From positions 30,091 through 94,090 of the forward strand of contig CAYLOO010000002.1 in the NCBI GenBank assembly GCA_964385355.1: 64,000 nucleotides of DNA, in the 5' to 3' direction. The notes under the pieces were generated by a model. The model was not told the DNA's origin. It did no database searches and worked only from the letters and a program-made list of their open reading frames with translations. Positions 1,778-55,550 of the stretch are shown in pieces. This DNA comes from an uncultured Anaerolineaceae bacterium (GTDB lineage Bacteria > Chloroflexota > Anaerolineae > Anaerolineales > E44-bin32). The position numbers and the translations under genes were made by a program. The stretch's first letter is position 1; every line of letters begins with the position of its first letter.

Positions 1778-2171
1778 GGGGATGAATGGTATCGACGGAG
1801 GTGGAGCGTCACAGATTGCAAGCCGAGAGGCGCCGAACTCGTTAACTCAGCGCACATACAAGTGCCAATCGCACTGACTATGCTGCTCTACCCGTAGCCG
1901 CGTAAGCGATCTATAGGAAGATCAGTGCTCTCCCAGGAGAGCTCGCCACCTCAAGTTTCGCCCCAGCAGCGCGAGGATTGGCGATCAAAATGTAGGGGCT
2001 GGCAGGATTGGATCCGCGACAGTTCTGCAAGAGCGGGTTTCGGCTCGCAGCGGATAGTTGAGTTGAACGCCTGTCAATCTACGTCATCTCAGCAAAAACA
2101 AAGATTGGCTATGCTTGTAGACATCTGTTGACTGAATCCTTCGGACGCGGGTTCGAATCCCGCCATCTCCA
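1778..2171 (+). ncRNA. ssrA: tmRNA (SsrA), one-piece
   Basis: The 5' end GGGGATGAATGGTATCGACGG and the 3' end GGACGCGGGTTCGAATCCCGCCATCTCCA form a tRNA-Ala-like acceptor with a G3:U pair and a T-arm. The internal tag frame GCC AAT CGC ACT GAC TAT GCT GCT CTA CCC GTA GCC GCG TAA (1864-1905) encodes ANRTDYAALPVAA. CCA is not encoded. Confidence 0.95.
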
Positions 2172-2172
2172 C

Positions 2173-17419: not shown

Positions 17420-19012
17420 ATGAACAAGGATGGTCTGCTCCTAGAAAACGCAATTATCTATACCTTCGGTGACCCTGCTGGTCCAGTTGAGAGCCTGGCA
17501 ATTCAGGACGGCCATATCTTCGCAATCGGCGACAGAGAGCGCCTTATGCAAACTATTCCCTCAAGCTTCACAAGCCTGGACCTTGGCGGACGAGTAATCC
17601 TTCCCGGCTTGACGGATTCCCACATCCACTTCGAGAAATACTCGCTCAATCATGAACAAATAGGCTGTGACACAAATACAATCGATGAGTGTCTTGCCCG
17701 AATTGAGAGCGTAGCCAAGACGCTCCAACCAGGTGAGTGGATACTTGGACATGGGTGGGATCAAAACTTGTGGGGACGATACGGCACGAAAGAGGAGCTT
17801 GATCGAGTCACGGCCAGCAACCCTGCATACATCACCGCGAAATCCCTCCACGCTGCTTGGGCGAATACAGCTGCGCTCAACCAGGCCGGATTGAACACCT
17901 ACTCAGCAGACCCTCCTAAAGGAAAGCTTCAGCGCAGAGAAGACGGAAGCCTGACAGGTATCCTGTATGAATTCGCCATGCTCCTCATCTCCGATCTCAT
18001 TCCGCGACTGTCTCCTTCCGATCTCTCCCGAATAATGCTGCATGGGCAGGATGAACTTCTCCGTTTGGGGATCACTTCAATACATGATTTCGACGGCAAA
18101 AGGTGTCTTCAAGCGCTTCAATTACTAAGGGAAGATTCGCTGCTTCAACTTCGAGCTGTAAATTCAATTCGTTTTGATGATTTTGAAAGCTCCATTGATG
18201 CCGGCTTGCGCACCGGCTTCGGGGATGAGTGGCTCCGCATCGGTGCCGTTAAGCTATTTTCTGATGGCGCCTTAGGACCTCACACAGCAGCTATGCTCAA
18301 TCCCTATGAAGATGATGCAAGTAATTCGGGGATCCTTCTTTTAACTGCAGAAGAAATTACAGAAATTGGCAAGAGAGCAGCAGCGAACGGCCTCGCGCTC
18401 GCTATTCATGCCATTGGCGATCGAGCGAACCGCGTTGTTCTGGACGCTTTTGAAGAGCTGCGGGCATTTGAAGTGGAGAACCAGATCAAACCCCTTCCGC
18501 ATCGAATCGAGCATCTCCAGTTAATCTCGCAAGAAGATACCCAAAGACCGGCATATCTTGACATCATCGTGTCGATGCAACCCATCCATGCAACATCTGA
18601 TATGCAGATGGCTGATCGCTATTGGGGCAATAGAGTCCAACAAAGCTATGGATGGCGTTCTCAGATAAATGCGGGTTCGAAGCTGTTATTCGGCTCAGAT
18701 GCCCCTGTTGATTCTGCAAACCCGTTTATAGGGATTCATTCCGCAGTCACCCGCAAAGCAGTTGATTGCAATGATGATGCATTCTCCTGGGTTCCCGATC
18801 AAAGAATCAATCTTCAAGAAGCCTTCAATGCCTATACAGTCTGGCCTGCGCAATCCATTGGTCTCGGATCTAAGCTGGGAAAGCTTCTTCCCGGATACCT
18901 CGCCGACCTTATCGTGCTTGACGAGGACCCATTCCACCTGGACTATTCTGAACTTCCCTCAATCAAACCTTCGGGGGTGATGGTAAATGGCGAGTGGCAC
19001 TTCTTAGACTAG
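17420..19012 (+). CDS. Amidohydrolase family protein (Amidohydro_3 / YtcJ-like)
   Basis: LPGLTDSHIHF metal-binding start, HAIGD, and GSDAPV near the C-terminus. Confidence 0.85.
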   Translation: MNKDGLLLENAIIYTFGDPAGPVESLAIQDGHIFAIGDRERLMQTIPSSFTSLDLGGRVILPGLTDSHIHFEKYSLNHEQIGCDTNTIDECLARIESVAKTLQPGEWILGHGWDQNLWGRYGTKEELDRVTASNPAYITAKSLHAAWANTAALNQAGLNTYSADPPKGKLQRREDGSLTGILYEFAMLLISDLIPRLSPSDLSRIMLHGQDELLRLGITSIHDFDGKRCLQALQLLREDSLLQLRAVNSIRFDDFESSIDAGLRTGFGDEWLRIGAVKLFSDGALGPHTAAMLNPYEDDASNSGILLLTAEEITEIGKRAAANGLALAIHAIGDRANRVVLDAFEELRAFEVENQIKPLPHRIEHLQLISQEDTQRPAYLDIIVSMQPIHATSDMQMADRYWGNRVQQSYGWRSQINAGSKLLFGSDAPVDSANPFIGIHSAVTRKAVDCNDDAFSWVPDQRINLQEAFNAYTVWPAQSIGLGSKLGKLLPGYLADLIVLDEDPFHLDYSELPSIKPSGVMVNGEWHFLD

Positions 19013-20893
19013 GCGCCGCAAATCTCCTTCTCGTACCGTTACTCCCACCGCATCGAGATGTTCCATCAGCGCTAACGCGTATTTCCTCGATGTTTGAAAT
19101 TTGTCGCGAACATCTGCGACCGTGACTGTTCCGCTTTCCTTCAGGTCTTTCTTAACTTTATCGACCATCTCATCGTACGTATCCGTCTTAAATATAACGT
19201 CATCTGATACCTGCACCAGCGATCCGCTCTCAAGCATGAACCGGACGAGATCCTCTCCGATCTCCTGCGATGTTTCCTTTAGTGATGGCGGAGCGTACGG
19301 GTTAGAATCGAATTTCAAGAGCAATTGATCCACTAATTCTTTCTCATTATCATCAAGCTGAACCCTGTGGTCTTTTAAAGACACATATCCTGGAACGATT
19401 ACAGCATATCCATCTTCTTCAGCCTGTTCTATCAGAAAACTTGCCGTTTTCGTCTCCATCCCCATTTTGCTGCGCAATTCTTCAATTGGCATCCCAACCC
19501 GGAGTGGATTTGACTGGTGGTAATCTGCCAAGAGTTTTCGGATCTGCTCTACCTTCGTCAGCCACGTGTTCTTGTCCATGACTAACGATAAAGATTCCAC
19601 AGATAAGTCACTTGCGTTGTGTGAGATCAGTTCACCGTTTTGGATTAATTCTCGAATTGCTCCTTCTGCTTCATCATCAGAGATACCCGCCTCTTTCAAA
19701 CTATCATATAAGGGTACTGGTCCCATCCTTTCGAGCGTTCTCTGGACAACCGTCGCAGGTGTTCCTCGAAGCAAGGCTTCTAGGTGCCCAATTACAGCAT
19801 GGTCTTTTAGGCGATGTCTTCTTTTTGGATGCGCGTCAGCTACTACCCCACCTCCTAACGTTGAGCTGGGCGAAGGTCGACGTATTATAAATCTGTCTCC
19901 CCTAATAATGATTACTGGGGTTGAGAGGATAAGTTGAAGCCAACCTTCATCGCCCGGGTTGAGCTTCTCACGCCCCAACAATCGGACTTTCGCAACACGC
20001 TGTGCCGCACCTGCATACAGCTTGATTTCTTGATTATGGCGCATTACATGATCCGCATCTGCCAACATTTGAAAGTGGACATCGATCATGCTCGTCGATT
20101 TGCAGGTTCCAGGTTTAATTACAACTTCTCCGCGCTCCACATCATCCACTTCTATTCCGCTGATATTCACCGCTACCCTGCTCCCTTGGAGGGCATGGTC
20201 CAATTTTTCTTTATGTGTTTGCAAGCCACGTATTCTCCCTTTAGAGCCACCGGGTTGTATCTCGACGAGATCACCTACTGTAAGTGTGCCATCTAGCAGT
20301 GTCCCCGTTACAACGGTTCCGAAACCAGCGATTGTAAAGATCCGATCAATGGGCAATCGCGGGACACCTCGATCCTTGCGCCGCGGAATTTCCTGCAAGA
20401 TATCTTGCAGCGATGCCACCAGGTTATCAAGACCTTCGCCCGTTTTTGCTGAGACTCGTACAATCGGTGATTGACCAAGCGAAGAGGCGCTTACTAGCTT
20501 CGATACATCCTCTTCAACCAAGCCAAGCCACTCGTCATCAACAATGTCGATTTTCGTTAGGACGATAATCCCTCTTTGCACGTTTAGAAGATCCAAGATT
20601 GATAGGTGCTCCCTTGTTTGCGGCATGACCCCCTCGTCTGCCGCGACAACAAAGAGAACAGCGTCGATCCCCCCCGCTCCTGCCAACATGTTTTCGATAA
20701 AATCGCGATGTCCTGGAACATCGACGATGCCAACGGATTCGCCATCCGGTAAAGTCAGCCAGGCGAATCCTAAGTCGATCGTCATCTGTCTTCTCTGTTC
20801 TTCGGCTAGCCGGTCTGGATTGATCCCGGTTATCGCTTGAACGAGAGATGATTTGCCGTGATCCACATGTCCTGCCGTTCCAATTACACGCAT
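19004..20893 (-). CDS. selB: Selenocysteine-specific translation elongation factor SelB
   Basis: GTPase start IGTAGHVDHGKSSL...DVPGH. Long C-terminal winged-helix region ending TSRKYALALMEHLDAVGVTVREGDLRRL. Confidence 0.9.
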   Translation of the reverse strand: MRVIGTAGHVDHGKSSLVQAITGINPDRLAEEQRRQMTIDLGFAWLTLPDGESVGIVDVPGHRDFIENMLAGAGGIDAVLFVVAADEGVMPQTREHLSILDLLNVQRGIIVLTKIDIVDDEWLGLVEEDVSKLVSASSLGQSPIVRVSAKTGEGLDNLVASLQDILQEIPRRKDRGVPRLPIDRIFTIAGFGTVVTGTLLDGTLTVGDLVEIQPGGSKGRIRGLQTHKEKLDHALQGSRVAVNISGIEVDDVERGEVVIKPGTCKSTSMIDVHFQMLADADHVMRHNQEIKLYAGAAQRVAKVRLLGREKLNPGDEGWLQLILSTPVIIIRGDRFIIRRPSPSSTLGGGVVADAHPKRRHRLKDHAVIGHLEALLRGTPATVVQRTLERMGPVPLYDSLKEAGISDDEAEGAIRELIQNGELISHNASDLSVESLSLVMDKNTWLTKVEQIRKLLADYHQSNPLRVGMPIEELRSKMGMETKTASFLIEQAEEDGYAVIVPGYVSLKDHRVQLDDNEKELVDQLLLKFDSNPYAPPSLKETSQEIGEDLVRFMLESGSLVQVSDDVIFKTDTYDEMVDKVKKDLKESGTVTVADVRDKFQTSRKYALALMEHLDAVGVTVREGDLRRLV

Positions 20894-20924
20894 GGGGAAT
20901 ACTCACAAGCTACTAGATAGAGAT

Positions 20925-22109
20925 TTACCTGCCTCTTGAGTCCAATTCTGTTATCCATTCTCGGATTGTAGACAATAGTTCGGCAAGTCGCCTTCTATCG
21001 CTTCCTTCGATCTCTCCCAACCGATCGAGCCCATTGCTGAGATTCGATGAAATCTCATCGATCTCAGGTAGCAGTTTATCGTGCAGCCTAGTATGTTCGT
21101 TCCAGCGCTCATCCATGGTTAAGGCATAAGTGCTCCAGCGCCGGTGATCTTCTGATTGAAATTCTCCCCATTTATGCTTAATCCGTTCTTCAGCAAGGCG
21201 CTGCATCTCACCTACCTCGGTAATTCTGCGCTCTAATCGTTCAATAACTTCTTCAAGGTCGCTTTGCATCTGCTTTAAAAAACGATGTGTTCCTTCATAC
21301 GCAATCACTCGCTTATCGATTGCTTCAGCCATTTTTTCGAAAGCTGAATAGCTCTGGTCCCATTCTTTCAAGGTCTTCTCAAATTCAACAGTCTTCAGCC
21401 CCTGAGTCTCCATCCAGAGTTCCTGCGATTCGCGGCGCTCTTTTTCGCTCGCTTGAGATTCATTCGTACGCACATCTAATCGACGAGTAAAGTTTTCCAA
21501 TAACTCTACCTTCGCATTAGCCCCATCAAGACCTTTCTTATGTCTTTCGATAAGACTTTCAATCTTTATTAGACGTTTGCCAACCTGTTTCTGATTTTCG
21601 CTCAAGGAGACCGTTTTCCGTTTTCCCGTTTCGTACTCTTCAAACGAGCGCTCTTGCTTTTCCTTGATAGCATTGAGCTCTTTTCTTATTTGAATCTCCT
21701 CCTCTCGACGATTCTCCAGGAGTTGTTCTAGTTTTTCTAGCCGCAATAACTCCTTTCGAACATTTTCGAGTCTTTTGGAAAACTCTTTTTGGTCTGTCTT
21801 ACGGAGGACTTCAAGGCCCTTTTCTTTCTCTGTGCGTCTTTCTTCAACATCTTCTAATTGACGCGATATCTCGTTTCGATGCTTCGCCAAAGCATCATCC
21901 ATTTGATGGATCCTCGCTGCAAGAGCCGCTGTTCGGGACGTTTCTTCAGATAGCCCTAGAATTTTTTGATCGAGTTTCTCAATGGATTCTTCAAGGTATT
22001 TGTTTCTGTCAAGAAGAGCCTGCAATTGTTCGGAGTCTTTAATCCGTTGCTCATCAAGCCATTTAAGCCTTTTCTCAATATCCTTTTGATCCATCTTCCT
22101 GCCTCCCAC
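20925..22109 (-). CDS. Coiled-coil protein of unknown function
   Basis: 394 aa, very rich in E/K/R/L with heptad-like periodicity. No TM segment or recognisable enzymatic motif. Confidence 0.7.
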   Translation of the reverse strand: MGGRKMDQKDIEKRLKWLDEQRIKDSEQLQALLDRNKYLEESIEKLDQKILGLSEETSRTAALAARIHQMDDALAKHRNEISRQLEDVEERRTEKEKGLEVLRKTDQKEFSKRLENVRKELLRLEKLEQLLENRREEEIQIRKELNAIKEKQERSFEEYETGKRKTVSLSENQKQVGKRLIKIESLIERHKKGLDGANAKVELLENFTRRLDVRTNESQASEKERRESQELWMETQGLKTVEFEKTLKEWDQSYSAFEKMAEAIDKRVIAYEGTHRFLKQMQSDLEEVIERLERRITEVGEMQRLAEERIKHKWGEFQSEDHRRWSTYALTMDERWNEHTRLHDKLLPEIDEISSNLSNGLDRLGEIEGSDRRRLAELLSTIREWITELDSRGR

Positions 22110-22146
22110 GTAAAAGGCGACGATTCCCTTTATTTGGGGATCTTGT

Positions 22147-23538
22147 TTATAAAAATAGATTCGCTAGTCCGGACGCAACATCTTCTACCCATGGAAAGAC
22201 AAGCTGCGGGAATAAGCCAAGAAGCAACAGCAAAATAATTCCACCCAGAAGAAAGATTCGGGGCTCTTTCGACACTGTGATTAATTCCTCGCCATCCCCT
22301 TTCCCGAAAAGAATTGCCGCCCATCTAATTACAAGCACACCCAATCCAATCATTGAGAATATTACAGCACCTGCCGCAAGTTTATCTCCTTGGAGCACTG
22401 CAGTTAAGAGCGACCATCTTCCAGGAAATCCTGCCGTGAGAGGAGTTCCTGCAGCCGAGAGCAATCCAATAAGGAAAGCGACCGCTGCAAATGGCATCTT
22501 ATATCCTACACCTCCCATCTGACTAATTAAACGCTTAACATTACATAAATACGATAACCCCAACGCAAGCACCCCAAGAGCAACCACACGCACAGCGCTA
22601 AGGCTCAACGCTATACGGAAAGCATCTTCGGTTCCAGATCCAACTGCGATCAGCATCACGCCCAAATCAACCAACAATGCATAGGCCATTAATTTCTTTA
22701 TGTCTCTTTGGCTGGCCGAGAACACAACCGCTAAAATCGTGGTAATAATCCCCGCGATTCGAATCCCATCGAATATTAACGTTTGTTCTCTTAACCATAG
22801 GTAACTGTCTAAAAATCTCAGCAAGAAGAAAAAGCCAGCACTCTGAAGGATAACCAGAATAAATATTAATAAATATGGATCTGACTCATCGGCAGATTTT
22901 GGCAGCCATAAATGAAAAGGTGGAACTGTCATCAAAATGGCAAATCCGAAACCGAGCATAAATGTCACCCGCATGGCCAGAACCGGGGTTGCGCTTGTGA
23001 TTCCAGCTACATCTAACAACGATCCGGTGAATAGGATGCTGATCATCGCAAACGTGTAAAGAATCAGCATTCGAGTTGCGCCGGTGCTCCTGGTATGCTG
23101 TTGTGTAACAAGAACAAACACGGCACCCATAGCTGCCAGCTCAATAAACACTGCCGCAAACACAAATGGATCTACCATCAGCGACGCAGCCACTATTGCC
23201 AGGATTAATAGTCCTACAGACGGAAAGAATCGATTTACTTTAGCAGCCCATGCTGCAGGTAATAGAAAGGTACCAGCTAGATAGAGAAATCCAATTAGCG
23301 GTCGTACATTATCACTCAAGGAAAACATACGCCCCAAGATAATCCACTCGCTCGCGAACTTAATTGAAAAATCCCCGAAGAGGAACGCCTCATCAAATGG
23401 GACCAATAACACAAATGCCGCAATGGAACCTGCCCCAATTGCAGCTGCAAACGCAGACGTCATTCGCTGGTGTCGCAGAACCAAGCACAACAGCGAATAT
23501 ATAACGGTTAAAAGGAAAATAATCAGGCCCGCACTCAT
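22147..23538 (-). CDS. Polytopic membrane protein, diverged NuoN/MrpD-type antiporter-like subunit (Proton_antipo_M-like)
   Basis: About 14 predicted TM segments. PPFHLWLPKSADESDPYLL aligns to the family core HxWLPxAxxxAPTPVSALLH, but most flanking conserved positions differ. Confidence 0.65.
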   Translation of the reverse strand: MSAGLIIFLLTVIYSLLCLVLRHQRMTSAFAAAIGAGSIAAFVLLVPFDEAFLFGDFSIKFASEWIILGRMFSLSDNVRPLIGFLYLAGTFLLPAAWAAKVNRFFPSVGLLILAIVAASLMVDPFVFAAVFIELAAMGAVFVLVTQQHTRSTGATRMLILYTFAMISILFTGSLLDVAGITSATPVLAMRVTFMLGFGFAILMTVPPFHLWLPKSADESDPYLLIFILVILQSAGFFFLLRFLDSYLWLREQTLIFDGIRIAGIITTILAVVFSASQRDIKKLMAYALLVDLGVMLIAVGSGTEDAFRIALSLSAVRVVALGVLALGLSYLCNVKRLISQMGGVGYKMPFAAVAFLIGLLSAAGTPLTAGFPGRWSLLTAVLQGDKLAAGAVIFSMIGLGVLVIRWAAILFGKGDGEELITVSKEPRIFLLGGIILLLLLGLFPQLVFPWVEDVASGLANLFL

Positions 23539-24152
23539 AAATCGTGATTCTCCGACATCACATAACGTATCTGGATAGAAATAATGTAACTGAATACGAG
23601 TACGATACCCAGATGAACCATTGCCAGCAAGGCAACCAGTGCCAGCGCAGGTTCAATGAAACCGTAGATTAACTCAGCACCTGACACAAGTGTGAGCAAC
23701 CCGATTCCGATTCTCAGCTTATCCGTTCCTAATCCCAAATTCAATAGGCTGGAAGCGATAAGAAATGAGGCGCCCACACTCGCTTCGATTCTTATGTCAA
23801 ATTGTGCAAATAAGTTACTTCTTGCGACGCTTACAGACGCAACCAATACAATAAGTAATGCAATGATACGAAAAGGTAAATTGGCTGATAACAGCTGCTC
23901 ATCCCCTTGCAAAGGCTCATTACCAATTTGTCGAATTCCGAGGTACAAGATTACACACACCAGTAATCCGGTCACCAATTTTGCAGCAACACCTGCGGCT
24001 GGCAAACTCGTAGCTGCCAACCATGAGATGGATAGGTATTGCACCGCAAGAATAAGCATTGATCTTGGTTGTGGCTTCATAATAGCGAGAGCAGTTCCCG
24101 TTATGAAGATAAAAATCACAGGCAAGATCAAGTAATTATTGAGCCAGGTCAT
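23535..24152 (-). CDS. Small polytopic membrane protein (possibly NuoJ/K- or MrpB/C-like)
   Basis: 205 aa, about 6 hydrophobic segments. Overlaps the downstream gene by 4 bp. The similarity call is weak. Confidence 0.55.
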   Translation of the reverse strand: MTWLNNYLILPVIFIFITGTALAIMKPQPRSMLILAVQYLSISWLAATSLPAAGVAAKLVTGLLVCVILYLGIRQIGNEPLQGDEQLLSANLPFRIIALLIVLVASVSVARSNLFAQFDIRIEASVGASFLIASSLLNLGLGTDKLRIGIGLLTLVSGAELIYGFIEPALALVALLAMVHLGIVLVFSYIISIQIRYVMSENHDL

Positions 24153-24158
24153 TTAAGA

Positions 24159-25712
24159 TCACCTCAAAGCGAGAAGGAGCGCCGCAATGAAGGCAAACAT
24201 CCAAAGCATTGCAGCTTCGCCCTCGAATAGTTCACCAATAGATCTTGCCATACTAAGCGCACGACGAAGGACGTTCCAGATCACTGAGAATATCCATTGC
24301 GGATTTATGCCCAGAAACATAGCCCTCCATCGCGTAAATTCAATCTTTTCAATATTGCGCAATGCGAAGAAGGCACCCACACCTACGGCAACTGCTACTG
24401 CTGTAACAATCCCTCCTTCAATGCTGGAAGTCCCTTGAATCCAGAAACCCAGCCCTATACTTACTAAAACTGGCAATGCCAAGCCCATGCTATACATGAC
24501 TCGAATAAGACTTTCACCGGTAGGCCATGGCTCCTCTTCCGAAAAGAAGAGATGGATCGCACCGAGAGAGAGGCTGCTTATTCCTATGATTCCTATTAAA
24601 GCCTGAATCCATGTTCCCTCATTCAATGCCGATTGACCTATCACCGAACTAATCAGCCCCCCTGGACTCCAAGGTATGCCAACTAGCAGCACTGAGGCAA
24701 AAACAGGCCAAACGCGATGCGAGGGTGTATGGATTTGAACAAGCGATAGCAATACTCCAACAAGCAACAGCAATACACTTGTCACGAATAGGACATCGCC
24801 ATTCGCAGAAGCGCTGCTGCTTGCCAGGATGCCAACACCTGCGAGACCCATAACAAAAAATGGGCCTGCCAAGACCCGATTCTCTTCCAGCATCCAGCGA
24901 ACTCCCCCGAGCAGGATTCCTATCGCTCCAGCCAATGCTAGCCAGAATCTTATTGCTGAAGGTGCTCCATTTTCAAGAAATCTCGCGAGCAGTAAGAGCG
25001 CAAGCGCCGGTGGTAACAAACGCAATAGTGAACCTGCGCCTCTCCGGAAAGGGGAAGGGGAAGGCAATGTTAACTGCAAAGGAATCACTCCTAACCGTAG
25101 TAAAACCCCCATGAGAAACATCAACGCCGCCGGTGTGGAAAAGGACGCGGCGTCAAGACCTGCTCCAATTCCTTCGATTGAGTTAATCCAGGCTGCCGTG
25201 ACGATTAAGAACACACTCACCAAGTCAACGCCGGCTCGAACTATCGCTCGGTGGATGTCTTCCACGTTTTCCATAAAGTAAATAAAGAAAATAAAAGAGC
25301 ACAAATCTAATAATGCAAATGTAAGTACAGCGGTGAGTAAATTGATCGCGAAAGCAACCAACATGGCCAGTGCTGCGTATACAAACCAGAACACCCGTAC
25401 GCCCGTCGATGCACTGTCTGAACTTACAGCAGCAGTTAGAATCATCGAGAGAAGAACGGTCGTAATACAATACGCAAGTCCCCAGCCAGTTCTGTCGAGT
25501 GAAAATTCAAGAGGGGTCTGAAATAAGTTTGCCGGTTGCCATATTGAGAAACTTGCAGCATCAGGTATCGCCGCGAGCATCACTAGAGACAAAAACCAGA
25601 TGAGCAATACGAGCGACGTGCTCACAACCCATTGAGTCCGAGATGGGCTATTGCGGACAAGCCATGTTGCGCCCGCAGCGAGCAGGAGAGCGATAATTGG
25701 AATAAATAGCAT
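24159..25712 (-). CDS. Polytopic membrane protein, highly diverged NuoL/MrpA-type antiporter-like subunit
   Basis: 517 aa, more than 14 hydrophobic segments. GVIPLQLTLPSPSPFRRGAGSLLRLLPPALALLLLARF occupies the position of the family FPLHxWLPDAMEGPTPVSAL...LLAR block. Confidence 0.55.
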   Translation of the reverse strand: MLFIPIIALLLAAGATWLVRNSPSRTQWVVSTSLVLLIWFLSLVMLAAIPDAASFSIWQPANLFQTPLEFSLDRTGWGLAYCITTVLLSMILTAAVSSDSASTGVRVFWFVYAALAMLVAFAINLLTAVLTFALLDLCSFIFFIYFMENVEDIHRAIVRAGVDLVSVFLIVTAAWINSIEGIGAGLDAASFSTPAALMFLMGVLLRLGVIPLQLTLPSPSPFRRGAGSLLRLLPPALALLLLARFLENGAPSAIRFWLALAGAIGILLGGVRWMLEENRVLAGPFFVMGLAGVGILASSSASANGDVLFVTSVLLLLVGVLLSLVQIHTPSHRVWPVFASVLLVGIPWSPGGLISSVIGQSALNEGTWIQALIGIIGISSLSLGAIHLFFSEEEPWPTGESLIRVMYSMGLALPVLVSIGLGFWIQGTSSIEGGIVTAVAVAVGVGAFFALRNIEKIEFTRWRAMFLGINPQWIFSVIWNVLRRALSMARSIGELFEGEAAMLWMFAFIAALLLALR

Positions 25713-25840
25713 ACTTATCTTGTGGAGAGGTTCCTCAGCTTTTTTCGACGTTTAGCATACCACGGAAGCGCCCTCATGCTATACTTTTTACGCTTCTTCA
25801 CAGAATCTAATCCTAGGCCGACGAAAAGAGACTTAATGAA

Positions 25841-27457
25841 ATGACCAAGCGAATCACTCCAACCAAGGACCATCCATCGTCGAACCCTGTCGTAATCGAC
25901 GGCAACCATCTTACACTAGCGAACCTTAAATCCGTTGTTCGCTTCAAAACCCGAGTTGATCTCGATAAATCAGCAAGAGAGAGAATAAACCAATCCGCTA
26001 AGAATCTTAAACGGCTTGCATCTTCTAAAGCCCCAATCTATGGTGTGAATACTGGTTACGGTATTTTTGCCGATCGGCGTCTGGATTCCTCCCAGGCATC
26101 GAAGATCTCGGACAATCTGGTTCTGAGTCACGCAGTAGCGGTCGGAGATCCTTTCTCAGAGGAGGTCGTTAGAGCTGCGATTCTCATTCGGGCAAACTCT
26201 CTTGCACATGGATACTCTGGCGTAAGAACCGAAATCATCGACGTCCTTCTTTCGTTATTAAATAAAGGTGTAACACCTTACATTCCCTCTCAAGGCTCAT
26301 TAGGTTCATCGGGTGATCTCGCCCAATTAGCTCAACTCGCACTTGTTATTACAAATTCCGACGCTCGTGAGTTTGGAGATACGGAGGTGCAAGCCTGGTT
26401 CGAAAACAGCCTTCTCCCTGGTCATGAGGCAATGAAAAAAGCAGGTATCGAGCCTATTGTACTCGGCCCAAAGGAAGGCTTAGCGCTCACGAACGGCGCA
26501 ACCTTTTCGACGGCTCTTCTCGCTTTGGCCGTCATAGATTCGCAGCGAGTGCTTTTCTCGAATGAGATCGCTTCATCTATGACCCTCGATGCCCTCCTTG
26601 GCGTTTCTGCCGCGTTTGATGAACGAATCCATGCAGCGAGGCCTTACACCGGGCAACAAGCCGTTGCTCAGAGAATGCGCAACCTTATTGCAGGCAGCCA
26701 GCTTATTGATAGCACTGCAAGGGTGCAGGACGCTTACAGCCTACGCTGCTGCCCTCAAATCCTTGGTCCGATTTGGGATACGCTCGCGTACGCAGAAAAG
26801 GTATGCAATATTGAGATTAACTCAGCAACCGATAATCCCCTGCTATTTGGCGATGATGTCCTCTCAGGGGGAAATTTCCATGGGGAACCCGTGGGTCTTG
26901 CCGCCGATTATCTAAAAATAGCACTTTCGGAGGCTGGATCAATATCAGAGAGGCGAATCTTCAGACTTTTGTCTGAGGATATGAATGCTAACCTCCCGGC
27001 CATGCTTATCGCAGATCGCAGCAAGATCGGTCTCTACTCGGGCTTAATGATGCTTCATTACACTGCCGGTTCGTTGGCGCTTGAAAATCAAGCTCTTGCT
27101 AATCCTAACTCAATTTTCTCTGTGCCTACTTCTGCCGGCCAGGAGGACCATAACGCCAACTCGACTACGGCTGCCAGGAATCTTCGACTCATAGTTGAGA
27201 ACTTGACCTGCATCACCGCAATCGAAATTATCTGCGCTTCCCAAGCTCTCGATTTGCGCATGAAAGAAACCCCCGGGAAATCTCCAGGCTCAGGAACACT
27301 TGTTGCGCTTAAACACATCCGTAAATCTATCGCTTTTATCGAGCGCGACCGGCCATACTCAGTAGACATCAAGCTCATCAGCGAAGTAATCCAATCTGGA
27401 TCACTGCTCACCGCCCTTTATGATGCGGGGTTTGACGATTACCCCCCTGTGCTATAA
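25841..27457 (+). CDS. hutH: Histidine ammonia-lyase-like MIO-family enzyme
   Basis: YGVNTGYG, LSHAVAVG, and GSLGSSGDLAQLAQ at the MIO site (usually GASGDLAPLAH). C-terminal SAGQEDHNAN. Confidence 0.8.
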   Translation: MTKRITPTKDHPSSNPVVIDGNHLTLANLKSVVRFKTRVDLDKSARERINQSAKNLKRLASSKAPIYGVNTGYGIFADRRLDSSQASKISDNLVLSHAVAVGDPFSEEVVRAAILIRANSLAHGYSGVRTEIIDVLLSLLNKGVTPYIPSQGSLGSSGDLAQLAQLALVITNSDAREFGDTEVQAWFENSLLPGHEAMKKAGIEPIVLGPKEGLALTNGATFSTALLALAVIDSQRVLFSNEIASSMTLDALLGVSAAFDERIHAARPYTGQQAVAQRMRNLIAGSQLIDSTARVQDAYSLRCCPQILGPIWDTLAYAEKVCNIEINSATDNPLLFGDDVLSGGNFHGEPVGLAADYLKIALSEAGSISERRIFRLLSEDMNANLPAMLIADRSKIGLYSGLMMLHYTAGSLALENQALANPNSIFSVPTSAGQEDHNANSTTAARNLRLIVENLTCITAIEIICASQALDLRMKETPGKSPGSGTLVALKHIRKSIAFIERDRPYSVDIKLISEVIQSGSLLTALYDAGFDDYPPVL

Positions 27458-27623: not shown

Positions 27624-28901
27624 ATGCCAATCATTCAACCAGTTCGAGGCACGCGCGATTTCTACCCGGAGAATATGGCCTTTCGCCAGTGGCTCAACAC
27701 TCAGATCCGAGAGGCATCCACGCAATTTGGGTATCAGGAATTCGATGGCCCCTTTCTGGAGCGCCTGGAACTCTATGCCGCCAAATCCGGTGACGAGCTC
27801 GTTAAAGAGCAATCCTATGTTTTTCCCGATCGAAGTGGTTCGATGATCACGCTCCGCCCAGAACTCACTCCATCTCTTGCACGTATGGTTGCGCAGCGCG
27901 GCAAAGGCCTCAACCTGCCTCTTCGCTGGTGGTCTTTTGGGCCTTTTTGGCGATACGAGCGAAAACAGAAAGGCCGATCCCGAGAATTCTTCCAGTGGAA
28001 TATCGACCTTATCGGCGTCGACACCCCTGAAGCGGATGCAGAGCTTGTAGCTGTAGCGGCGACACTTTTTCGCAATGTTGGGCTGACAGCAGATATGATC
28101 CGCATCAAAATTAACAACCGGCGCCTTGCAGAGAAACGGCTCGAGGAAATCGGTATACAGGGCGAGCTGCTGCCAATAACTTTCCGTCTCATCGATCGTC
28201 AAGATCGCATGGCGCCAGAGGCATGGAAATCTTATACGCTCGAAAGCGGATTAAACGAAGATCAATTCGCAGGTCTCGCGAACATGCTCGAAGATCTTGA
28301 TGCATGGAAATCTTCACCGGAATTGCTTCAATGCTTCAATGCGGCCAAATCGCTCGGCATGGATGAGTATTTGGACTATGACCCGACCGTAATCCGGGGC
28401 CTCGATTACTACACCGGGACGGTTTATGAAGCCAGGGACGTCAAAGGTAATCATCGTTCGATCCTCGGCGGAGGTCGATACGACGATCTAGTCTCTGTGG
28501 TCGGCGGCAACCCTATCCCTGGGACTGGTTTCGCGATGGGAGATGTCGTATTCGGATTGGTCCTGGACGAAAACGGGATTAAACCTGATTTGCGCGTGAG
28601 TCCGACGGACATCTTGATCACAACTTTTGAAGATGGCGGTGAGAGCGCTTCTATTCAAATCGCTGCAGAGCTGCGTGATGCCGGTTATCGGGTTGAATGG
28701 TATCCTCAACCTGTACGCCTTCAACGGCAGCTAAAGTACGCAGATCGTAATGAAATCCCACTGGTTGTAATTATTGGTCCCGATGAAATGGAGTCGGATA
28801 AGGTCTCGCTGAAGGATATGGTCTCTGGCGAGCAGGAGACGATTGCTCGCAGCGACCTTCGAGCACGGATAAAAGCTCTGCTTGCTGGTAAATTGCCTTG
28901 A
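27624..28901 (+). CDS. hisS: Histidine--tRNA ligase
   Basis: MPIIQPVRGTRDFYPE, class II motifs (FRYERKQKGRSREFFQWNID, GGGRYDDL) and a C-terminal anticodon-binding domain. Confidence 0.95.
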   Translation: MPIIQPVRGTRDFYPENMAFRQWLNTQIREASTQFGYQEFDGPFLERLELYAAKSGDELVKEQSYVFPDRSGSMITLRPELTPSLARMVAQRGKGLNLPLRWWSFGPFWRYERKQKGRSREFFQWNIDLIGVDTPEADAELVAVAATLFRNVGLTADMIRIKINNRRLAEKRLEEIGIQGELLPITFRLIDRQDRMAPEAWKSYTLESGLNEDQFAGLANMLEDLDAWKSSPELLQCFNAAKSLGMDEYLDYDPTVIRGLDYYTGTVYEARDVKGNHRSILGGGRYDDLVSVVGGNPIPGTGFAMGDVVFGLVLDENGIKPDLRVSPTDILITTFEDGGESASIQIAAELRDAGYRVEWYPQPVRLQRQLKYADRNEIPLVVIIGPDEMESDKVSLKDMVSGEQETIARSDLRARIKALLAGKLP

Positions 28902-29004: not shown

Positions 29005-29077
29005 GGCGAGGGTAGTTCAGTGGCAGAACGCGCGCCTGTGGAGCGCGATGTCGCGGGTTCGAATCCCGTCCCTCGCC
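29005..29077 (+). tRNA. tRNA-His (anticodon GTG) with encoded G-1
   Basis: Cloverleaf read by eye: G-1 plus acceptor GCGAGGG/CCCTCGC, D-stem GTTC/GAAC, anticodon loop CTGTGGA, T-arm GCGGG-TTCGAAT-CCCGT, discriminator C73. CCA is not encoded. Confidence 0.92.
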
Positions 29078-29162
29078 CTGACATAACCTTAATAACGAAA
29101 GCTCTAGCTTTTCCTTTTATAGAATTGGCGAGGACTTGGATCCCTTCAGTCACCAATTCGAG

Positions 29163-45727: not shown

Positions 45728-47563
45728 TTATTGCAGGAAATGCTCTTCGGATAGACTATCCAATCCTAACTCCCTCATCTTCTTCGTCGTTGGCATTCCT
45801 GTGCTTGAATCCCATCCACGTCCATCGTAGTAGGCAAGCAACATCTCTTCAAAAGGAGGGGTATAACCAGCAGCGCCGCCTTCTGCAAGAGGAACTTTAA
45901 AACACTCTGGCAGCGAGTCCTCTATTCCAACGGGGCTGAGGTGGTGGTTGATCATCCTTTTGAGATTCCATGATCGCTCGCCGAGAAGCAGCAGCTCGTT
46001 TAAAGTGTATTCAAATCCAGTTGCGAATTGGATCAATTTACTGGTGTCGCTTGGAGGTACGTTTGCGAAGATGCACATCACGAGGGCGTTTATGACAGAT
46101 GACCAATTCTGATGACGGATGATGTTCTTGACCTTTTCCACTCCATCCTGGCGATTGAAGAAGTCTATGCCGATCACCTCAATTGTCTGCCCCAGCTCGA
46201 CCAAGTAGTACGGTCCCTGATTATGGCAAGCGCCTCGAGGTGAGGTGGCGTAAACAAGCGCCATCCCTGATCCACCTCGCGGCTCATGATAAGGCACTTC
46301 TAGTCCCTTTACTTCTACCGCAGCATTCGGTGAGTTAAAATGCTCCGCTAGAGCCCTCGCCCCTCTGGCTATGATCGCCCCCAAACCTTCACGCAACACA
46401 GTTTGATGGACGAGTTTCTCGACAACAGCGTGATCCCCCCAACGGAATTCATCGCCTCCGAAGTCCTTTGAAGTGAATAATCCATCCTCGAATAATTTCA
46501 AAACTAAGCCAATTGTGTTAGAGAGCGAGATCGTATCCATCCCATAGCGATCACATATCTCCCCCATTCTCGTAATGAACGGTAGATCCGTAATTCCGAG
46601 ATTCGGTCCGAAACCGACTGTCGTCTCATATTCGGGACCCTTTCGTTCTATACCGTCCTTCAATTTAACTTTTCTACCGCACGCGATCACACAACCATGA
46701 CAAGCGCTGATACCACTTAATATCGTCTCCGCTGCCTCTGATCCAGAGACATTTTCAGTACCCTCCAACGAGCCTGCTGAAAAGTATTTCTTTGGCATTA
46801 AACCAAAATGATCGAATAAATCGCTTGAACTGGATGTGCCTAATTCTCGCATACTCACACTTACGATATCGTTCTTGAGCTCTCTGTTTACTCTAGCCCT
46901 GATGGCTGCATATTCTGCCGGGTTATCAAGATGGATCGAACCTCGACCGCGAACGGCGATAGCCTTCAAGTTCTTCGAACCCATTACGGCGCCCAATCCA
47001 GTCCGTCCCGCCACTCTTCCATGATCGCAGAGTATCAGTGCGAAGGGGATTTGTTGTTCCCCGGCAAGACCGATACATGCCACCCGAGCTGCCGGCTGAC
47101 CTAGTTCTTCCTTGATTATTTCCTGTGTTTGGTACGTATCTGCCGCTCCCCATAGATGGCCAGCAGAACGAAGCTCTATCTGGCTACCCTGGATATTTAA
47201 ATAAACCGGTACTGCGGCTCGACCGCGAACGATCAAGACATCGATCCCTGCTTTACGCAACTCTGTTCCGAAGAAACCACCAATATTGGATTCGGCCCAG
47301 AGCCCTGTCGAGGGTGACTTGCCAGAAATGACAGACCGAGCCACGGCGGGCCCACTCGTGCCCGTTAGCGGCCCGGTTAGAAAGGCAAGAGGGGCTTCTG
47401 GGCACAGTGGATCGAGGTCTGGGGACAACTCAGGGAATAGTAAATACGCGCCTAGACCACTCCCTCCTAGATACTTTTGTATAACTTCATGCTTGATAAT
47501 CTCAATAGCATTTGAGCCAGTTGAAAGATCAATCGTCAAGGTACGGAATTGGTACTTGCTCAT
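45728..47563 (-). CDS. aor: Aldehyde:ferredoxin oxidoreductase family (tungstopterin) enzyme
   Basis: The N-terminus IDLSTG...YLGGSGLGAYLL, the size (611 aa), and the CHGCVIACGR [4Fe-4S] Cys motif. Confidence 0.88.
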   Translation of the reverse strand: MSKYQFRTLTIDLSTGSNAIEIIKHEVIQKYLGGSGLGAYLLFPELSPDLDPLCPEAPLAFLTGPLTGTSGPAVARSVISGKSPSTGLWAESNIGGFFGTELRKAGIDVLIVRGRAAVPVYLNIQGSQIELRSAGHLWGAADTYQTQEIIKEELGQPAARVACIGLAGEQQIPFALILCDHGRVAGRTGLGAVMGSKNLKAIAVRGRGSIHLDNPAEYAAIRARVNRELKNDIVSVSMRELGTSSSSDLFDHFGLMPKKYFSAGSLEGTENVSGSEAAETILSGISACHGCVIACGRKVKLKDGIERKGPEYETTVGFGPNLGITDLPFITRMGEICDRYGMDTISLSNTIGLVLKLFEDGLFTSKDFGGDEFRWGDHAVVEKLVHQTVLREGLGAIIARGARALAEHFNSPNAAVEVKGLEVPYHEPRGGSGMALVYATSPRGACHNQGPYYLVELGQTIEVIGIDFFNRQDGVEKVKNIIRHQNWSSVINALVMCIFANVPPSDTSKLIQFATGFEYTLNELLLLGERSWNLKRMINHHLSPVGIEDSLPECFKVPLAEGGAAGYTPPFEEMLLAYYDGRGWDSSTGMPTTKKMRELGLDSLSEEHFLQ

Positions 47564-53207: not shown

Positions 53208-55550
53208 CTATGCCGTATCATCCCCGGTATTTGAAAATTCGCTGCGATCGAATTTCGCCCCGCATGATTTGCACACTGCCTGATCACGATTCTCCACTAC
53301 CAGCAGCCCATTACAAGCTGGACAGGGTACATTTAAAGGTCGTTTCCAGGAAGTGAATTGGCATTCCGGGTAATTCGAGCAGCCGTAGAATACGCGCCCT
53401 TTCTTGGTTCGTCTCTCGACCAGATCACCGCCGTCGTCCGGGCAGCTAACCCCAATTTTCTCAAGCCAAGGCTCGGTGTGCCGGCAAGTGGGGAAATCCG
53501 AACAGCCGATGAATTTTCCATAGCGCCCATGTCGAATTAGAAGAGGTTTTCCACACTCAGGACAGGGAAGATCGAGCAATTCAGGCTCCGTCTTAATCTC
53601 AGGCATATTCTCAATAGCGCTCTCAAGCTCCTCTGAGAATGGCTTATAGAATTCGCGGATGACCTCCACCCATTCCCGTTTACCTGATGCGATTTCGTCT
53701 AACGAACCTTCCAGTTTGGCAGTGAAAGTTATATCGAGCACCTCCGAGAAATGCTCCACCAGTAGATCCGTGACAATTTCACCGATCTCGGTAGGATGCA
53801 GGCGTCGCTTCTCTCGAGTAACGTATCCCCGCTGACGCAGCGTCGAGATCGTTGGAGCATAAGTTGAAGGACGACCAATCCCATGGTCTTCCATTGCTTT
53901 AATCAAACTTGCGTCGGAATAACGTGAAGGAGGTTGCGTGAAATGCTGACCTGGAAACACCTCAGTCAGATCAAGAGAATCCCCCTCCACCAGTTCGGGA
54001 AGTTGTTCAAGTGTGGACATAAGACCATTTCCGCCATTATCTCCATTCTTGGATTTCTTCTCCCTATCACCATACACTTCCAAGAACCCTGTAAACCGTA
54101 AGGCGGATGCCGACACTCTGAAAAGATACTTATGGTCCGTAGAAACGCCCTCGATCTCAATCGCAAGCGTGTTGTACTCTGCGGGTTTCATCTGGGAGGC
54201 GACAAATCGCCGCCAGATGAGATCGTATAATTTAAACTGATCTGCCGAGAGATACGCCTTGATCCGCTCTGGAGTTCGGGAAACAGATGTTGGGCGAATC
54301 GCCTCGTGCGCTTCTTGAGCGCCGCGCGCTCGCGTCTTGTAGATTACTGGATTCCCGGGTAGGAAATCTTTTCCAAAGCGCTTTTCGATAAATTGCCTGG
54401 CATCCCCAATGGCATCCTTAGACACCTGTGTCGAATCTGTACGCATATAAGTAATCAGACCGTATGAATCACCTTCGCCTACATCGAGTCCCTCATACAA
54501 TTGCTGAGCGATAGCCATTGTCTTACGCGCAGTGTAATTAAACCGTCTAGACGCAGCTTGCTGCATTGTACTGGTTGTGAAGGGTGCCGCTGGTTTTCGG
54601 ATACGCTGGCCATGCTTGACCCCACCTACGCGGTAATCCGCCGCTTCGATATCCTCGACGAGCTCCTTAACTTCCCCTTCGCTCGTGATTTCTGCTTTCG
54701 TACCATCCCGGCGTGTAAGTCTCGCTATAAAATTAGGAGGCTTCTGTTGATTCACGAATCCTGCATCGATCGTCCAATATTCCTGGGGAATGAAATCCTG
54801 GATTTCACGCTCTCTTTCTACAACCATCCTCAGGGCAACGGATTGAACCCTACCAGCCGATAGGCGCCCACGGACCTTGGACCAGAGCAATGGGCTGAGT
54901 TTGTAGCCCACAAGCCTGTCGATGATGCGTCGAGCCTGCTGCGCATCGACAAGATCCATATCAATAATGCGTGGTTTTTGAAATGCCTCTTCAACAGCAG
55001 TTTTCGTGATCTCATGGAATACTACACGTTTAACGATTTCGGGTTCGATCTCAACCGCTTCAATAAGATGCCATGCGATCGCCTCACCTTCGCGATCTGG
55101 GTCTGTTGCAACGAAAACTTCGGCAGCTTTTGCAGAATCTCCCTTTAAGCCCTTGACGACATCGCGTTTTTCGTTTGGAACCCGGTACTTTGGTGTAAAA
55201 TTATTCTCCACGTCTACCGATAGCTGAGAGCGCAATAGATCGCGAACATGACCCACCGACGCTGTCACAGAGTAATCTTTTCCCAAGATTCGTCCAACTG
55301 TCCTCGCCTTTGCGGGAGATTCCACAATGACCAGTTTGCCTTTGCGTTTGTGAGGCTTTTTCTTTGATGCTTTCTTCTGCACATCAGGTTTCTCAAGACC
55401 TTCGTGCGCCGGTGTTTTACCCATCCTATATAACCCGGTGGCGCAAACCGGACATATTCCCCGCGTTGCTGGAGTCCCAGAAGACGTAAACGTCGGTTTT
55501 GGGCTGCCAATTTCTCTCTTCTCCTTGCACTTTACACAATAAGCTTCCAT
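53208..55550 (-). CDS. topA: DNA topoisomerase I with an extra N-terminal zinc ribbon
   Basis: Toprim LVIVESPAKA and the active-site region ITYMRTDS. C-terminal CxxC zinc ribbons. The N-terminal 45 aa carry CVKC...CPVC. Confidence 0.93.
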   Translation of the reverse strand: MEAYCVKCKEKREIGSPKPTFTSSGTPATRGICPVCATGLYRMGKTPAHEGLEKPDVQKKASKKKPHKRKGKLVIVESPAKARTVGRILGKDYSVTASVGHVRDLLRSQLSVDVENNFTPKYRVPNEKRDVVKGLKGDSAKAAEVFVATDPDREGEAIAWHLIEAVEIEPEIVKRVVFHEITKTAVEEAFQKPRIIDMDLVDAQQARRIIDRLVGYKLSPLLWSKVRGRLSAGRVQSVALRMVVEREREIQDFIPQEYWTIDAGFVNQQKPPNFIARLTRRDGTKAEITSEGEVKELVEDIEAADYRVGGVKHGQRIRKPAAPFTTSTMQQAASRRFNYTARKTMAIAQQLYEGLDVGEGDSYGLITYMRTDSTQVSKDAIGDARQFIEKRFGKDFLPGNPVIYKTRARGAQEAHEAIRPTSVSRTPERIKAYLSADQFKLYDLIWRRFVASQMKPAEYNTLAIEIEGVSTDHKYLFRVSASALRFTGFLEVYGDREKKSKNGDNGGNGLMSTLEQLPELVEGDSLDLTEVFPGQHFTQPPSRYSDASLIKAMEDHGIGRPSTYAPTISTLRQRGYVTREKRRLHPTEIGEIVTDLLVEHFSEVLDITFTAKLEGSLDEIASGKREWVEVIREFYKPFSEELESAIENMPEIKTEPELLDLPCPECGKPLLIRHGRYGKFIGCSDFPTCRHTEPWLEKIGVSCPDDGGDLVERRTKKGRVFYGCSNYPECQFTSWKRPLNVPCPACNGLLVVENRDQAVCKSCGAKFDRSEFSNTGDDTA

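Follow-up and report, generated by a model that had tools for sequence, protein, structure and literature searches.

Five minus-strand genes at positions 19004-25712 of the window, the 64,000-nucleotide stretch of DNA analysed here (contig CAYLOO010000002.1, positions 30,091-94,090, of GenBank assembly GCA_964385355.1, from an uncultured Anaerolineaceae bacterium), bring together a strongly diverged version of the antiporter module of complex I and Mrp transporters, a coiled-coil protein and SelB, the elongation factor dedicated to selenocysteine. The block opens with A517 (24159-25712), whose open reading frame (ORF), profile-profile matches and predicted fold point to a 517-aa NuoL/MrpA-type antiporter-like membrane protein. 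It continues with B205 (23535-24152), a 205-aa orphan membrane protein predicted to be polytopic from its ORF and hydropathy, and with C463 (22147-23538), a 463-aa diverged PF00361 protein of the NuoM/N/MrpD type recognized by Pfam. The acidic coiled-coil protein D394 (20925-22094), 389 aa long and placed by a Shine-Dalgarno sequence and an ATG, and selB (19004-20893), which encodes 629 aa and is recognized by TIGR00475 and Pfam, complete the block. The two large membrane proteins appear to have kept the architecture of the antiporter-like family and to have exchanged the lysines and histidines of its proton relay for arginines or hydrophobic residues.

A first-pass annotation of this DNA had described five co-directional minus-strand ORFs, and all of them are present in the order and with the gaps that it gave: 6 nt between A517 and B205, a 4-bp overlap of the B205 stop with the C463 start, 37 nt between C463 and the coiled-coil ORF when the latter is read from a GTG, and 31 nt between D394 and selB. 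The 4-bp overlap is consistent with translational coupling. What has to be amended is the 394-aa length of the coiled-coil protein, which results from reading the ORF from the GTG at 22109; from the ATG at 22094 the product has 389 aa. The ATG is most likely the start, because it has a Shine-Dalgarno sequence (GGGAGG) 7 nt upstream, all homologues begin at the Met that it encodes, and the exact 389-aa product is the form on public record. With this start, the gap between C463 and D394 becomes 52 nt. The two sequence motifs quoted in the annotation are likewise present, PFHLWLP at residues 207-213 of C463, followed by KSADESDPYLLIFILVILQSAGFF, and IPLQLTLPSPSPFRRGAG...LLLLARF in A517. The exact 517-, 205-, 463-, 389- and 629-aa products are recorded together on one NCBI contig of 108,717 bp, where the only names in use are 'hypothetical protein', 'formate hydrogenlyase subunit 3/MnhD' and 'selenocysteine-specific elongation factor', and each protein has hundreds of diverged full-length homologues, so the ORFs are real genes and not chance reading frames. 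At the downstream end, the selB stop overlaps the end of a convergent amidohydrolase gene (17420-19012, plus strand) by 9 nt (19004-19012), which leaves no intergenic space for a terminator after selB.

The antiporter-like proteins and their companions

C463 matches PF00361 over residues 188-389 with an E-value of 2.7e-25 and 89.6 bits (gathering score 21.5). The same protein falls below every NCBIfam equivalog cut-off for NuoL, NuoM, NuoN and MrpD, with 40-68 bits against cut-offs of 263-963: its best score is 68.4 bits against 617 (NF006419), and it reaches 66 bits against 263.8 for TIGR01972 and 62.8 bits against 542 for the MrpD model NF009306. Its best match among PDB sequences is the MBS subunit 6u8y_X (E 2.9e-13), and ND5, NuoL and NuoM chains are matched as well (E 1e-13 to 1e-9). 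By sequence, then, C463 is a genuine but atypical PF00361 member of the NuoM/N/MrpD type, and its description in the first-pass annotation as a diverged member that lacks the usual APTP block and the lysines of transmembrane helices (TM) 7 and 8 is borne out by the Pfam match and by the residue counts given below. That the block holds ordinary nuoL/M/N or mrp genes is rejected, since the equivalog scores are 4-15 times under the cut-offs and the key lysines are absent.

The relationship of A517 to this family is far more remote. The protein itself has no Pfam, NCBIfam or PDB sequence match, 44 diverse relatives gave no Pfam match (PF00361 and PF00662 included) even at E <= 1, and profiles built from 4 or 44 sequences found no complex I chain among the PDB sequences. 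When a HMMER profile was run against 1.84 billion proteins, it recovered its own family only (1253 representatives, 548 of them at E <= 1e-30), without spill-over into the very large PF00361 family; the 150 best of the 1253 representatives are 329-562 aa long and mostly full length. A517 had at one point been regarded as unrelated to PF00361 on the basis of a shallow hhalign comparison of 4 sequences (probability 0.06%) and the null PDB searches, a conclusion that deep alignments and the predicted fold overturned. With 236 A517-family and 176 C463-family sequences, hhalign aligned the two families over 422 columns at a probability of 97.4% and an E-value of 4.4e-11. An AlphaFold2 model of A517 (pLDDT 69.8, pTM 0.77) placed NuoL, ND5, NdhF, MrpA and MrpD at the top of a Foldseek search (E 5.6e-12 to 5e-9, probability 1.0, TM-score 0.6-0.74, identity 10-17%), the MrpA/MrpD chains being 9a6h, 7qru_D, 7d3u_A and 6z16_D. 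The deep alignment and the fold match show the remote homology to be real, and A517 is on these grounds a NuoL-type antiporter-like protein, from a family that has no Pfam model. The earlier view of A517 as a more eroded antiporter-like protein holds with the specification that profile-profile comparison and fold reveal it and ordinary hidden Markov models (HMMs) do not.

In the model, A517 has about 16 TM helices, made up of 14 core helices, TM15 and a terminal TM (residues 500-516). DSSP assigns helix breaks in TM7 (193-207/212-215) and TM12 (334-344/350-365). After TM15 come two amphipathic helices (456-494), a near-invariant E497-G498 pair (E497 in 189 of 193 family members) and the terminal TM, an arrangement that looks like a short lateral helix with a membrane anchor. 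A 697-aa ORF that appears to be a natural A517-B205 fusion (L004:5911-8004, GCA_011772595) was traced to an assembly artefact, an ambiguous base N with a frameshift; the near-identical contig L005 (5825-8004, Logan run ERR2564004) carries A517 and B205 as two separate genes.

The fate of the catalytic residues was followed in sets filtered to <70% identity, with 78 sequences for the C463 family and 193 for the A517 family. Positions were mapped by HMMER alignment to ovine ND5, by comparison with mycobacterial NuoM and by the A517/C463 profile alignment; the printed numbering of ovine ND5 reproduces the known H248, K336 and K392. Current models of proton transfer in Mrp and complex I depend on the Lys/His residues of TM7, TM8 and TM12, and those for PF00361 subunits at large on a chain of Lys, His and Glu. 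In C463, ND5 H248 aligns with I227, K336 with V318 (next to R317) and K392 with R374. The TM5 acid is retained in both families, as E133 of C463 (Glu in 66 of 78) and as D136 of A517 (Asp in 190 of 193), and the two positions co-align. At the TM7 lysine site, C463 position 202 is Leu, Trp, Ile, Met, Val or Tyr, and A517 has R206, which is Arg in 187/193 sequences and Lys in 1/193. Not one of the 78 C463-family sequences has a Lys in residues 192-206, the TM7a window, or in residues 221-240, the TM8 window, where His occurs in two; with no Lys anywhere in these windows, the loss does not depend on alignment register. At the TM8 site of A517, the aligned position 229 is hydrophobic, R231 (161/193, 83%) lies two residues away, and R244 at the end of the helix is also largely conserved (168/193, 87%). 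The TM11 'FK' site corresponds to R317 of C463 (Arg in 71, His in 4 and Gln in 3 of 78). The TM12 Lys/Glu site corresponds to R374 of C463 (Arg in 63, His in 6 and Lys in 3 of 78) and to position 355 of A517, which is Trp in 128/193 and has no conserved charge. Both large subunits thus keep broken TM7 and TM12 helices, the Pro/Gly motifs of these helices and the TM5 carboxylate, and the alignments indicate that the canonical relay residues of TM7, TM8, TM11 and TM12 are replaced by conserved arginines or hydrophobic residues. A canonical proton relay is unlikely as a result. The suggestion in the first-pass annotation that the module is possibly non-pumping is in line with this pattern, which speaks against the canonical mechanism and may leave room for other chemistry.

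The annotation had counted three antiporter-like proteins, of which A517 and C463 stand; for the 205-aa protein the claim is not supported, since B205 resembles nothing by sequence or profile. Hydropathy predicts about 6-7 hydrophobic, presumably transmembrane, segments. B205 and 42 relatives gave no recurring Pfam match, and B205 gave none in NCBIfam, with scattered noise only (one family member reached MNHE at E 0.077, judged noise); a 43-sequence profile found nothing below E 0.45 among the PDB sequences, and hhalign against the A517 and C463 families returned probabilities of 1-3%. The candidates that B205 is half of an antiporter-like repeat, a NuoK, a NuoJ or an MrpB/C subunit were dropped for want of support in hhalign, in Pfam searches with the 43 sequences and in the PDB profile search. 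The gene lies between A517 and C463 in 79 loci, and several polar residues are conserved within the hydrophobic segments: Q38, Y39, K58 (54/63), E160 (Glu or Asp in 57/63), Y163 and E167 (50/63). A useful precedent for a non-conducting small subunit next to a NuoL-like protein is DabC of DAB1. This membrane subunit has no Pfam family, can be superposed on one half of NuoM and was judged structural, its relay positions being hydrophobic (bioRxiv 10.64898/2026.05.01.722082).

D394 has 43% charged residues and an isoelectric point (pI) of 5.7, and in its AlphaFold2 model (pLDDT 85.9) a low-confidence hinge (187-193) separates two helices (3-186 and 194-388), each about 185 residues long. Foldseek found no match to the model in the PDB, and Pfam, NCBIfam and PADLOC returned coiled-coil noise only (SMC, Rad50, JetC and LmuB models). 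The long helices, the central hinge and the weak matches confined to the coiled coil recall the arms of SMC, Rad50 and JetC; unlike those proteins, D394 lacks an ATPase head, Walker motifs and a hinge domain, and its score is 17 bits against 567. Assignment to SMC/Rad50/JetC or to a defence system was rejected, as the matches cover coiled-coil regions at 16-17 bits against cut-offs of 567-729 and Foldseek is silent. The family is nevertheless constrained: 22 positions are invariant in 44 sequences with identities down to 26%, half of them (11/22) are Arg, and they cluster at residues 54-98 and 286-329. In a hairpin, the segments at about 51-98 and 286-329 would face each other.

SelB is canonical by its domain content, with winged-helix domains that are predicted to bind the selenocysteine insertion sequence (SECIS) element. 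It matches TIGR00475 at E 2.1e-112 and 376.7 bits against a cut-off of 242.25, and Pfam recognizes GTP_EFTU, D2, Beta-barrel_SelB, SelB-wing_2 and SelB-wing_3. Across 60 sequences, conservation extends to the G1, G3 and G4 motifs and to a TSRKY...GD.RRL segment at the C-terminal end. Within selB and the D394 gene (window 19566-20474 and 21966-22238, plus strand) there are antisense 'shadow' ORFs, 90-170 aa long, with equivalents in about 50-60 loci; they cluster as families in an all-against-all BLAST and look like by-products of conserved sense coding, not genes.

Conservation and transcription units

The block was compared across 88 related loci (L001-L088, the 80 best loci together with others, each with 10 kb on either side). 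For C463, A517 and D394 alike, the relatives belong without exception to metagenome-assembled genomes (MAGs) of Anaerolineales/Anaerolineae. A D394 profile run against one genome per GTDB species found relatives in at least 496 genomes, and the carriers among the matches listed include the cultured Thermanaerothrix daxensis GNS-1 and T. solaris and MAGs of Anaerolinea, Bellilinea, Levilinea and Longilinea. Wherever the contig extends far enough, the genes stand in the order A517-B205-C463-D394-selB, which holds for about 80 Anaerolineae genomes at the species level, and selB directly follows D394 in 78 of 79 loci. The exception is L074 (10001-16800, from a Bellilinea sp. MAG, DAISHK010000002.1), which has the four upstream genes and the TATAAT element discussed below intact and has a membrane protein and other unrelated ORFs in the place of selB, with no selB within 10 kb. 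This could be a natural loss or relocation of selB. Relative to the window proteins, identity falls to 15-22% for A517, 21-27% for B205, 23-29% for C463, 28-31% for D394 and 47-51% for SelB. The position immediately upstream of A517 is filled by 11 different gene families and that downstream of selB by 28 (68 loci each), which shows that the block is a unit and not a piece of a frozen region. Since the order is maintained at 15-30% membrane-protein identity amid such varied neighbours, purifying selection on a fixed unit is indicated. Synteny, one of the checks proposed with the first-pass annotation, is therefore conserved very strongly. One related contig of 12.6 kb, labelled 'Methanosarcinales archaeon' (L010, JAIWHF010000066.1), carries the whole block at about 80% identity to the window; it almost certainly belongs to Anaerolineales and was mis-binned into an archaeal MAG.

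Among the loci examined, general conservation stops at the five genes, and a search for additional block members ended with clade-specific housekeeping genes as the commonest neighbours. The commonest upstream neighbour is amidohydrolase/hydantoinase-like (38 loci), and ribosomal proteins, thymidine kinase and hypoxanthine phosphoribosyltransferase were read from the sequences downstream. The annotation had also remarked that companion genes of known antiporter systems are missing nearby, which agrees with scans of the block and of the ten other large window ORFs: these returned no Q-module, NuoH, hydrogenase or MrpE/F/G genes, no other Mrp small-subunit gene and no DabA. In the examined flanks of the related loci there are likewise no NuoH-like, NuoB/C/D/I or hydrogenase subunits. 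DabA (PF10070) is absent from the block, where the neighbours of C463 and A517 are B205, D394 and selB. A tRNA-Sec gene occurs neither in the window nor in the 88 related loci, and selA, selD, selC and yedE/F are missing from the neighbour families examined.

The first-pass annotation took the five genes as a simple operon, a claim that does not survive the comparison of intergenic regions. Across loci, the median gaps are -1 nt for A517-B205, -4 nt for B205-C463, 80 nt for C463-D394 and 31 nt for D394-selB, the last being 50 nt or less in 50/71 loci. In the 100 nt upstream of the D394 start, 56 of 81 loci have an exact TATAAT, 34 of them with the extended -10 form TGnTATAAT; shuffled sequence gives 4/81, and the same stretches upstream of A517 and of selB give 2/69 and 0/71. 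The extended element often reads ATGCTATAAT or TGGTATAAT and follows soon after the C463 stop, with TATAAT beginning a median of 27.5 nt beyond it. Of the 28 loci where space allows, 12 have a stable hairpin ahead of the TATAAT. In the window, the corresponding site is TATAAA at 22146-22151 (minus strand), a -10-like hexamer over the C463 stop codon, recognized from its sequence and its position across loci; two relatives at 82% identity (L009 and L010) have an exact TATAAT there. This signal emerged only by cross-species comparison, as a generic promoter and terminator scan of the window region gave counts at chance level and did not flag 22146-22151. The leader between C463 and D394 also holds an imperfect 7-bp hairpin, GATCCCC-AAATAAA-GGGAATC (22122-22142, minus strand), picked up as a terminator-like pattern match on the plus strand. 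Its structure is not conserved, the C463-D394 intergenic regions fold no more stably than shuffled sequences (median z -0.3), and Rfam found nothing over the block region, neither a known RNA nor a SECIS element, at E <= 1. The extended -10 element between C463 and D394 implies that the block comprises two adjacent transcription units, and D394-selB is predicted to be a unit of its own that directly follows the membrane genes and may also receive read-through transcription from them. Upstream of the block, a 128-nt divergent intergenic region (25713-25840) separates the A517 gene from an aromatic/histidine ammonia-lyase gene (25841-27457). A scan of this region gave no consensus promoter, and it contains TGGTATGCT, which resembles the extended -10 elements found upstream of D394 in other species.

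Elsewhere in the window, a tmRNA gene lies at 1778-2172 (plus strand) and encodes the tag peptide ANRTDYAALPVAA. A tRNA-His(GTG) gene at 29006-29078 (plus strand) follows the histidyl-tRNA synthetase gene (27624-28901) at a distance of about 100 nt, and tRNA-His is present in 27 related loci. The topoisomerase I encoded at 53208-55550 (minus strand) carries an N-terminal DUF5679 domain besides the usual Toprim, Topoisom_bac and zinc-ribbon domains. An aldehyde:ferredoxin oxidoreductase gene (AFOR_N/AFOR_C) at 45728-47563 (minus strand), which lies between a gene for YjeF-type NAD(P)HX repair and one for a GMC-type oxidoreductase, agrees with an anaerobic lifestyle.

What the block may do

We favor the view, to which we give about an even chance, that the block is specific to the Anaerolineae lineage and consists of a stand-alone membrane complex derived from the Mrp/complex I antiporter module together with a D394-selB unit. 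A517, B205 and C463 would form a three-subunit complex comparable to the distal membrane arm of complex I (NuoM-NuoL) or to the MrpD-MrpA core, in which A517 takes the NuoL/MrpA-type role, C463 the NuoM/N/MrpD-type role and B205 that of a small subunit with membrane-embedded Glu and Lys. A canonical Lys-to-Lys proton relay would be unlikely in such a complex, and the most likely alternative would be a device of carboxylates and fixed arginines. The TM5 Asp/Glu residues and the B205 Glu/Lys residues could serve as ion-binding sites, and the arginines could supply fixed counter-charges, much as the stator arginine does in rotary ATPases. The output might be the conduction or sensing of ions, or else conformational coupling and signalling, and would not be pumping in the style of complex I. 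The second unit would be D394, probably an antiparallel hairpin, and canonical SelB under their own extended -10 promoter, with the paired conserved patch of D394 as a plausible docking surface, either for the membrane complex, on its cytoplasmic face, or for SelB. The adjacency of D394 to the membrane genes, which persists in L074, favors docking on the membrane complex; the D394 promoter and the coupling to selB favor SelB as the partner. The first-pass annotation had made the coiled-coil protein a partner of the membrane module, a claim for which conserved adjacency is the whole basis.

Several considerations weigh against this reading. The assembly of A517, B205 and C463 is a prediction, the carboxylate/arginine mechanism is hypothetical, and contact between D394 and the complex is no more than a possibility. 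The A517 model is of moderate confidence overall (pLDDT 69.8) and below 60 in the lateral helix and anchor, and the D394 hairpin is uncertain in its geometry, as the pTM is 0.24 and an extended form would be equally possible. The residue equivalences of A517 come from one global-mode profile-profile alignment and motif register, and R231 is placed only to within about two residues of the TM8 site. In addition, the arginine substitutions may be compatible with other transport chemistry, for example with Na+ or anions.

An unlikely alternative is that the membrane genes encode an ordinary working minimal Mrp, in which Na+/H+ or K+/H+ exchange persists and D394 and selB are mere neighbours. Two antiporter-like subunits with a small subunit that has a Glu in the membrane do recall MrpA/MrpD with MrpB/C, the TM5 carboxylates and broken-helix motifs are retained, and public annotation calls C463 MnhD/HyfB-like. 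However, the Lys/His residues of TM7, TM8 and TM12 are all missing, and at physiological pH proton cycling by Arg would not be expected. The searches also detected no MrpB, MrpC (PF00420), MrpE, MrpF or MrpG homologue, and C463 stays at 68 bits or less where the MrpD/NuoM equivalog cut-offs lie at 263-937. The loss of the relay residues could also be taken to mean that the antiporter fold no longer transports anything and serves as a rigid platform that anchors the coiled coil at the membrane, for instance as a cytoskeleton-like or septum-associated scaffold in filamentous bacteria. We consider this a little less probable again. It would suit the length of D394 (about 2 x 185 residues) and its lack of an enzymatic domain, as well as the constant presence of D394 beside the A517-B205-C463 genes, even in L074 where selB is missing, and DabC shows that antiporter-derived subunits can turn purely structural. 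Near-invariant buried charges (D136 at 98%, R206 at 97%, R317 at 91%, E133 at 85% and the Glu/Lys residues of B205) would be odd in a passive anchor, however, and D394 has no identified membrane-binding element and is grouped, under its own predicted promoter, with selB rather than with the membrane genes.

That same grouping is the starting point for a third and rather improbable explanation, in which D394 is an accessory factor of SelB in selenocysteine insertion or its regulation and stays beside the membrane genes owing to the location of the D394-selB promoter within the 3' end of C463. The presence of TGnTATAAT upstream of D394 and its absence upstream of selB, the short median gap of 31 nt between the two genes, and the position of the -10 element, which at its median distance of 27.5 nt past the C463 stop often puts the -35 region inside C463, are as this explanation would have them, and Arg makes up half of the invariant D394 positions. 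Against it, D394 is acidic (pI 5.7), which is unusual for an RNA-binding factor, the protein and its promoter persist in L074 without a neighbouring selB, and the promoter lies 50-148 nt beyond C463 in many loci where the adjacency is kept nonetheless. The family is also confined to one lineage, and to our knowledge bacterial SelB needs no accessory protein.

It is very improbable that the repurposed antiporter module, the coiled-coil protein and SelB make up one system that imports a selenium anion or tethers selenocysteine insertion to the membrane, although such a five-gene system would explain how selB has stayed attached through dozens of flanking rearrangements. The corresponding reading with an arginine-lined module that takes up selenium oxyanion or hydroselenide, or tethers the insertion machinery, fares worse still: the attachment of selB in 78/79 loci despite 28 downstream neighbour families and the fit of fixed membrane-core arginines to anion binding are set against guilt by association as the sole evidence, the absence of selA, selD, selC and yedE/F from the 88 loci (by tRNA-Sec scan and in the neighbour families examined), the four-gene L074 without selB and the fact that we know of no PF00361 protein that carries anions.

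Comparison with known systems

Complex I offers an architectural parallel for the two large subunits, as C463 matches PF00361 and the A517 model superposes on NuoL/ND5 with TM-scores of 0.6-0.74. Both share with NuoL/M/N (ND5/ND4/ND2) the 14-TM core, the broken TM7 and TM12, a motif of the P-x-H-x-W-x-P type and the TM5 carboxylate, and the A517 model adds a NuoL-like TM15, lateral helix and terminal TM. The modelled lateral helix has about 40 residues, and that of NuoL is far longer. In contrast to complex I, neither the block nor the ten large window ORFs include NuoH/A/J/K or Q- or N-module genes, the Lys/His residues of TM7, TM8, TM11 and TM12 have given way to Arg or hydrophobic residues in A517/C463, A517 is invisible to the PF00361 and PF00662 HMMs, and C463 lies far under the NuoL/M/N equivalog cut-offs. 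The Mrp antiporters (Mnh/Pha/Sha, MrpA-G) are comparable in being stand-alone, as the block is inferred to be, and in combining one NuoL-like and one NuoM/N-like protein with small subunits. The block differs in its single small subunit, which resembles none of MrpB, C, E, F and G, in the lack of an MrpA C-terminal domain on A517, in the missing catalytic lysines and in the coiled-coil gene and selB that come next.

The DAB systems for vectorial CO2 hydration (DabA/DabB, with DabC in DAB1) show that a NuoL-like PF00361 subunit can operate outside complex I, and they add to it a cytosolic partner and a small membrane subunit that has no Pfam family (bioRxiv 10.64898/2026.05.01.722082), for both of which the block has possible counterparts. 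They differ in that DabA (PF10070, beta-carbonic-anhydrase-like) has no equivalent in the block, where the possible cytosolic partner is a non-enzymatic coiled coil, in that DabB keeps the proton-translocation residues that A517 and C463 have lost, and in having one full-size antiporter-like subunit where the block has two. With MBH/MBS/MBX, the block shares the modular use of Mrp-like subunits, and the nearest PDB sequence to C463 is the MBS chain 6u8y_X; the scans found none of the NiFe-hydrogenase-like, NuoB/C/D/I-like or MbhM/NuoH-like genes of those complexes.

A full-text literature search found no description of the five-gene block, in agreement with the first-pass remark that it is not a described system. 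Because the defining features of complex I, Mrp, MBH/MBS and DAB all fail here and the literature searched gives no account of it, the block appears to be an undescribed variant of the antiporter module, namely an arginine-substituted, stand-alone, two-subunit antiporter-like module with two orphan partner families. It adds a NuoL-type family without a Pfam model (A517) and two orphan families (B205 and D394), and it reveals a very stable and unexplained linkage to selB. Retention throughout the lineage, with D394 in at least 496 species-level genomes, and the fold, broken helices and TM5 carboxylates indicate strong selection, and the cultured hosts T. daxensis and T. solaris make the block experimentally tractable. 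Proton pumping by complex I, Mrp, membrane-bound hydrogenases and the DAB CO2 pumps is powered by PF00361 subunits, and set beside these systems the block provides a natural test case for which parts of their common fold matter when proton hopping is taken away.

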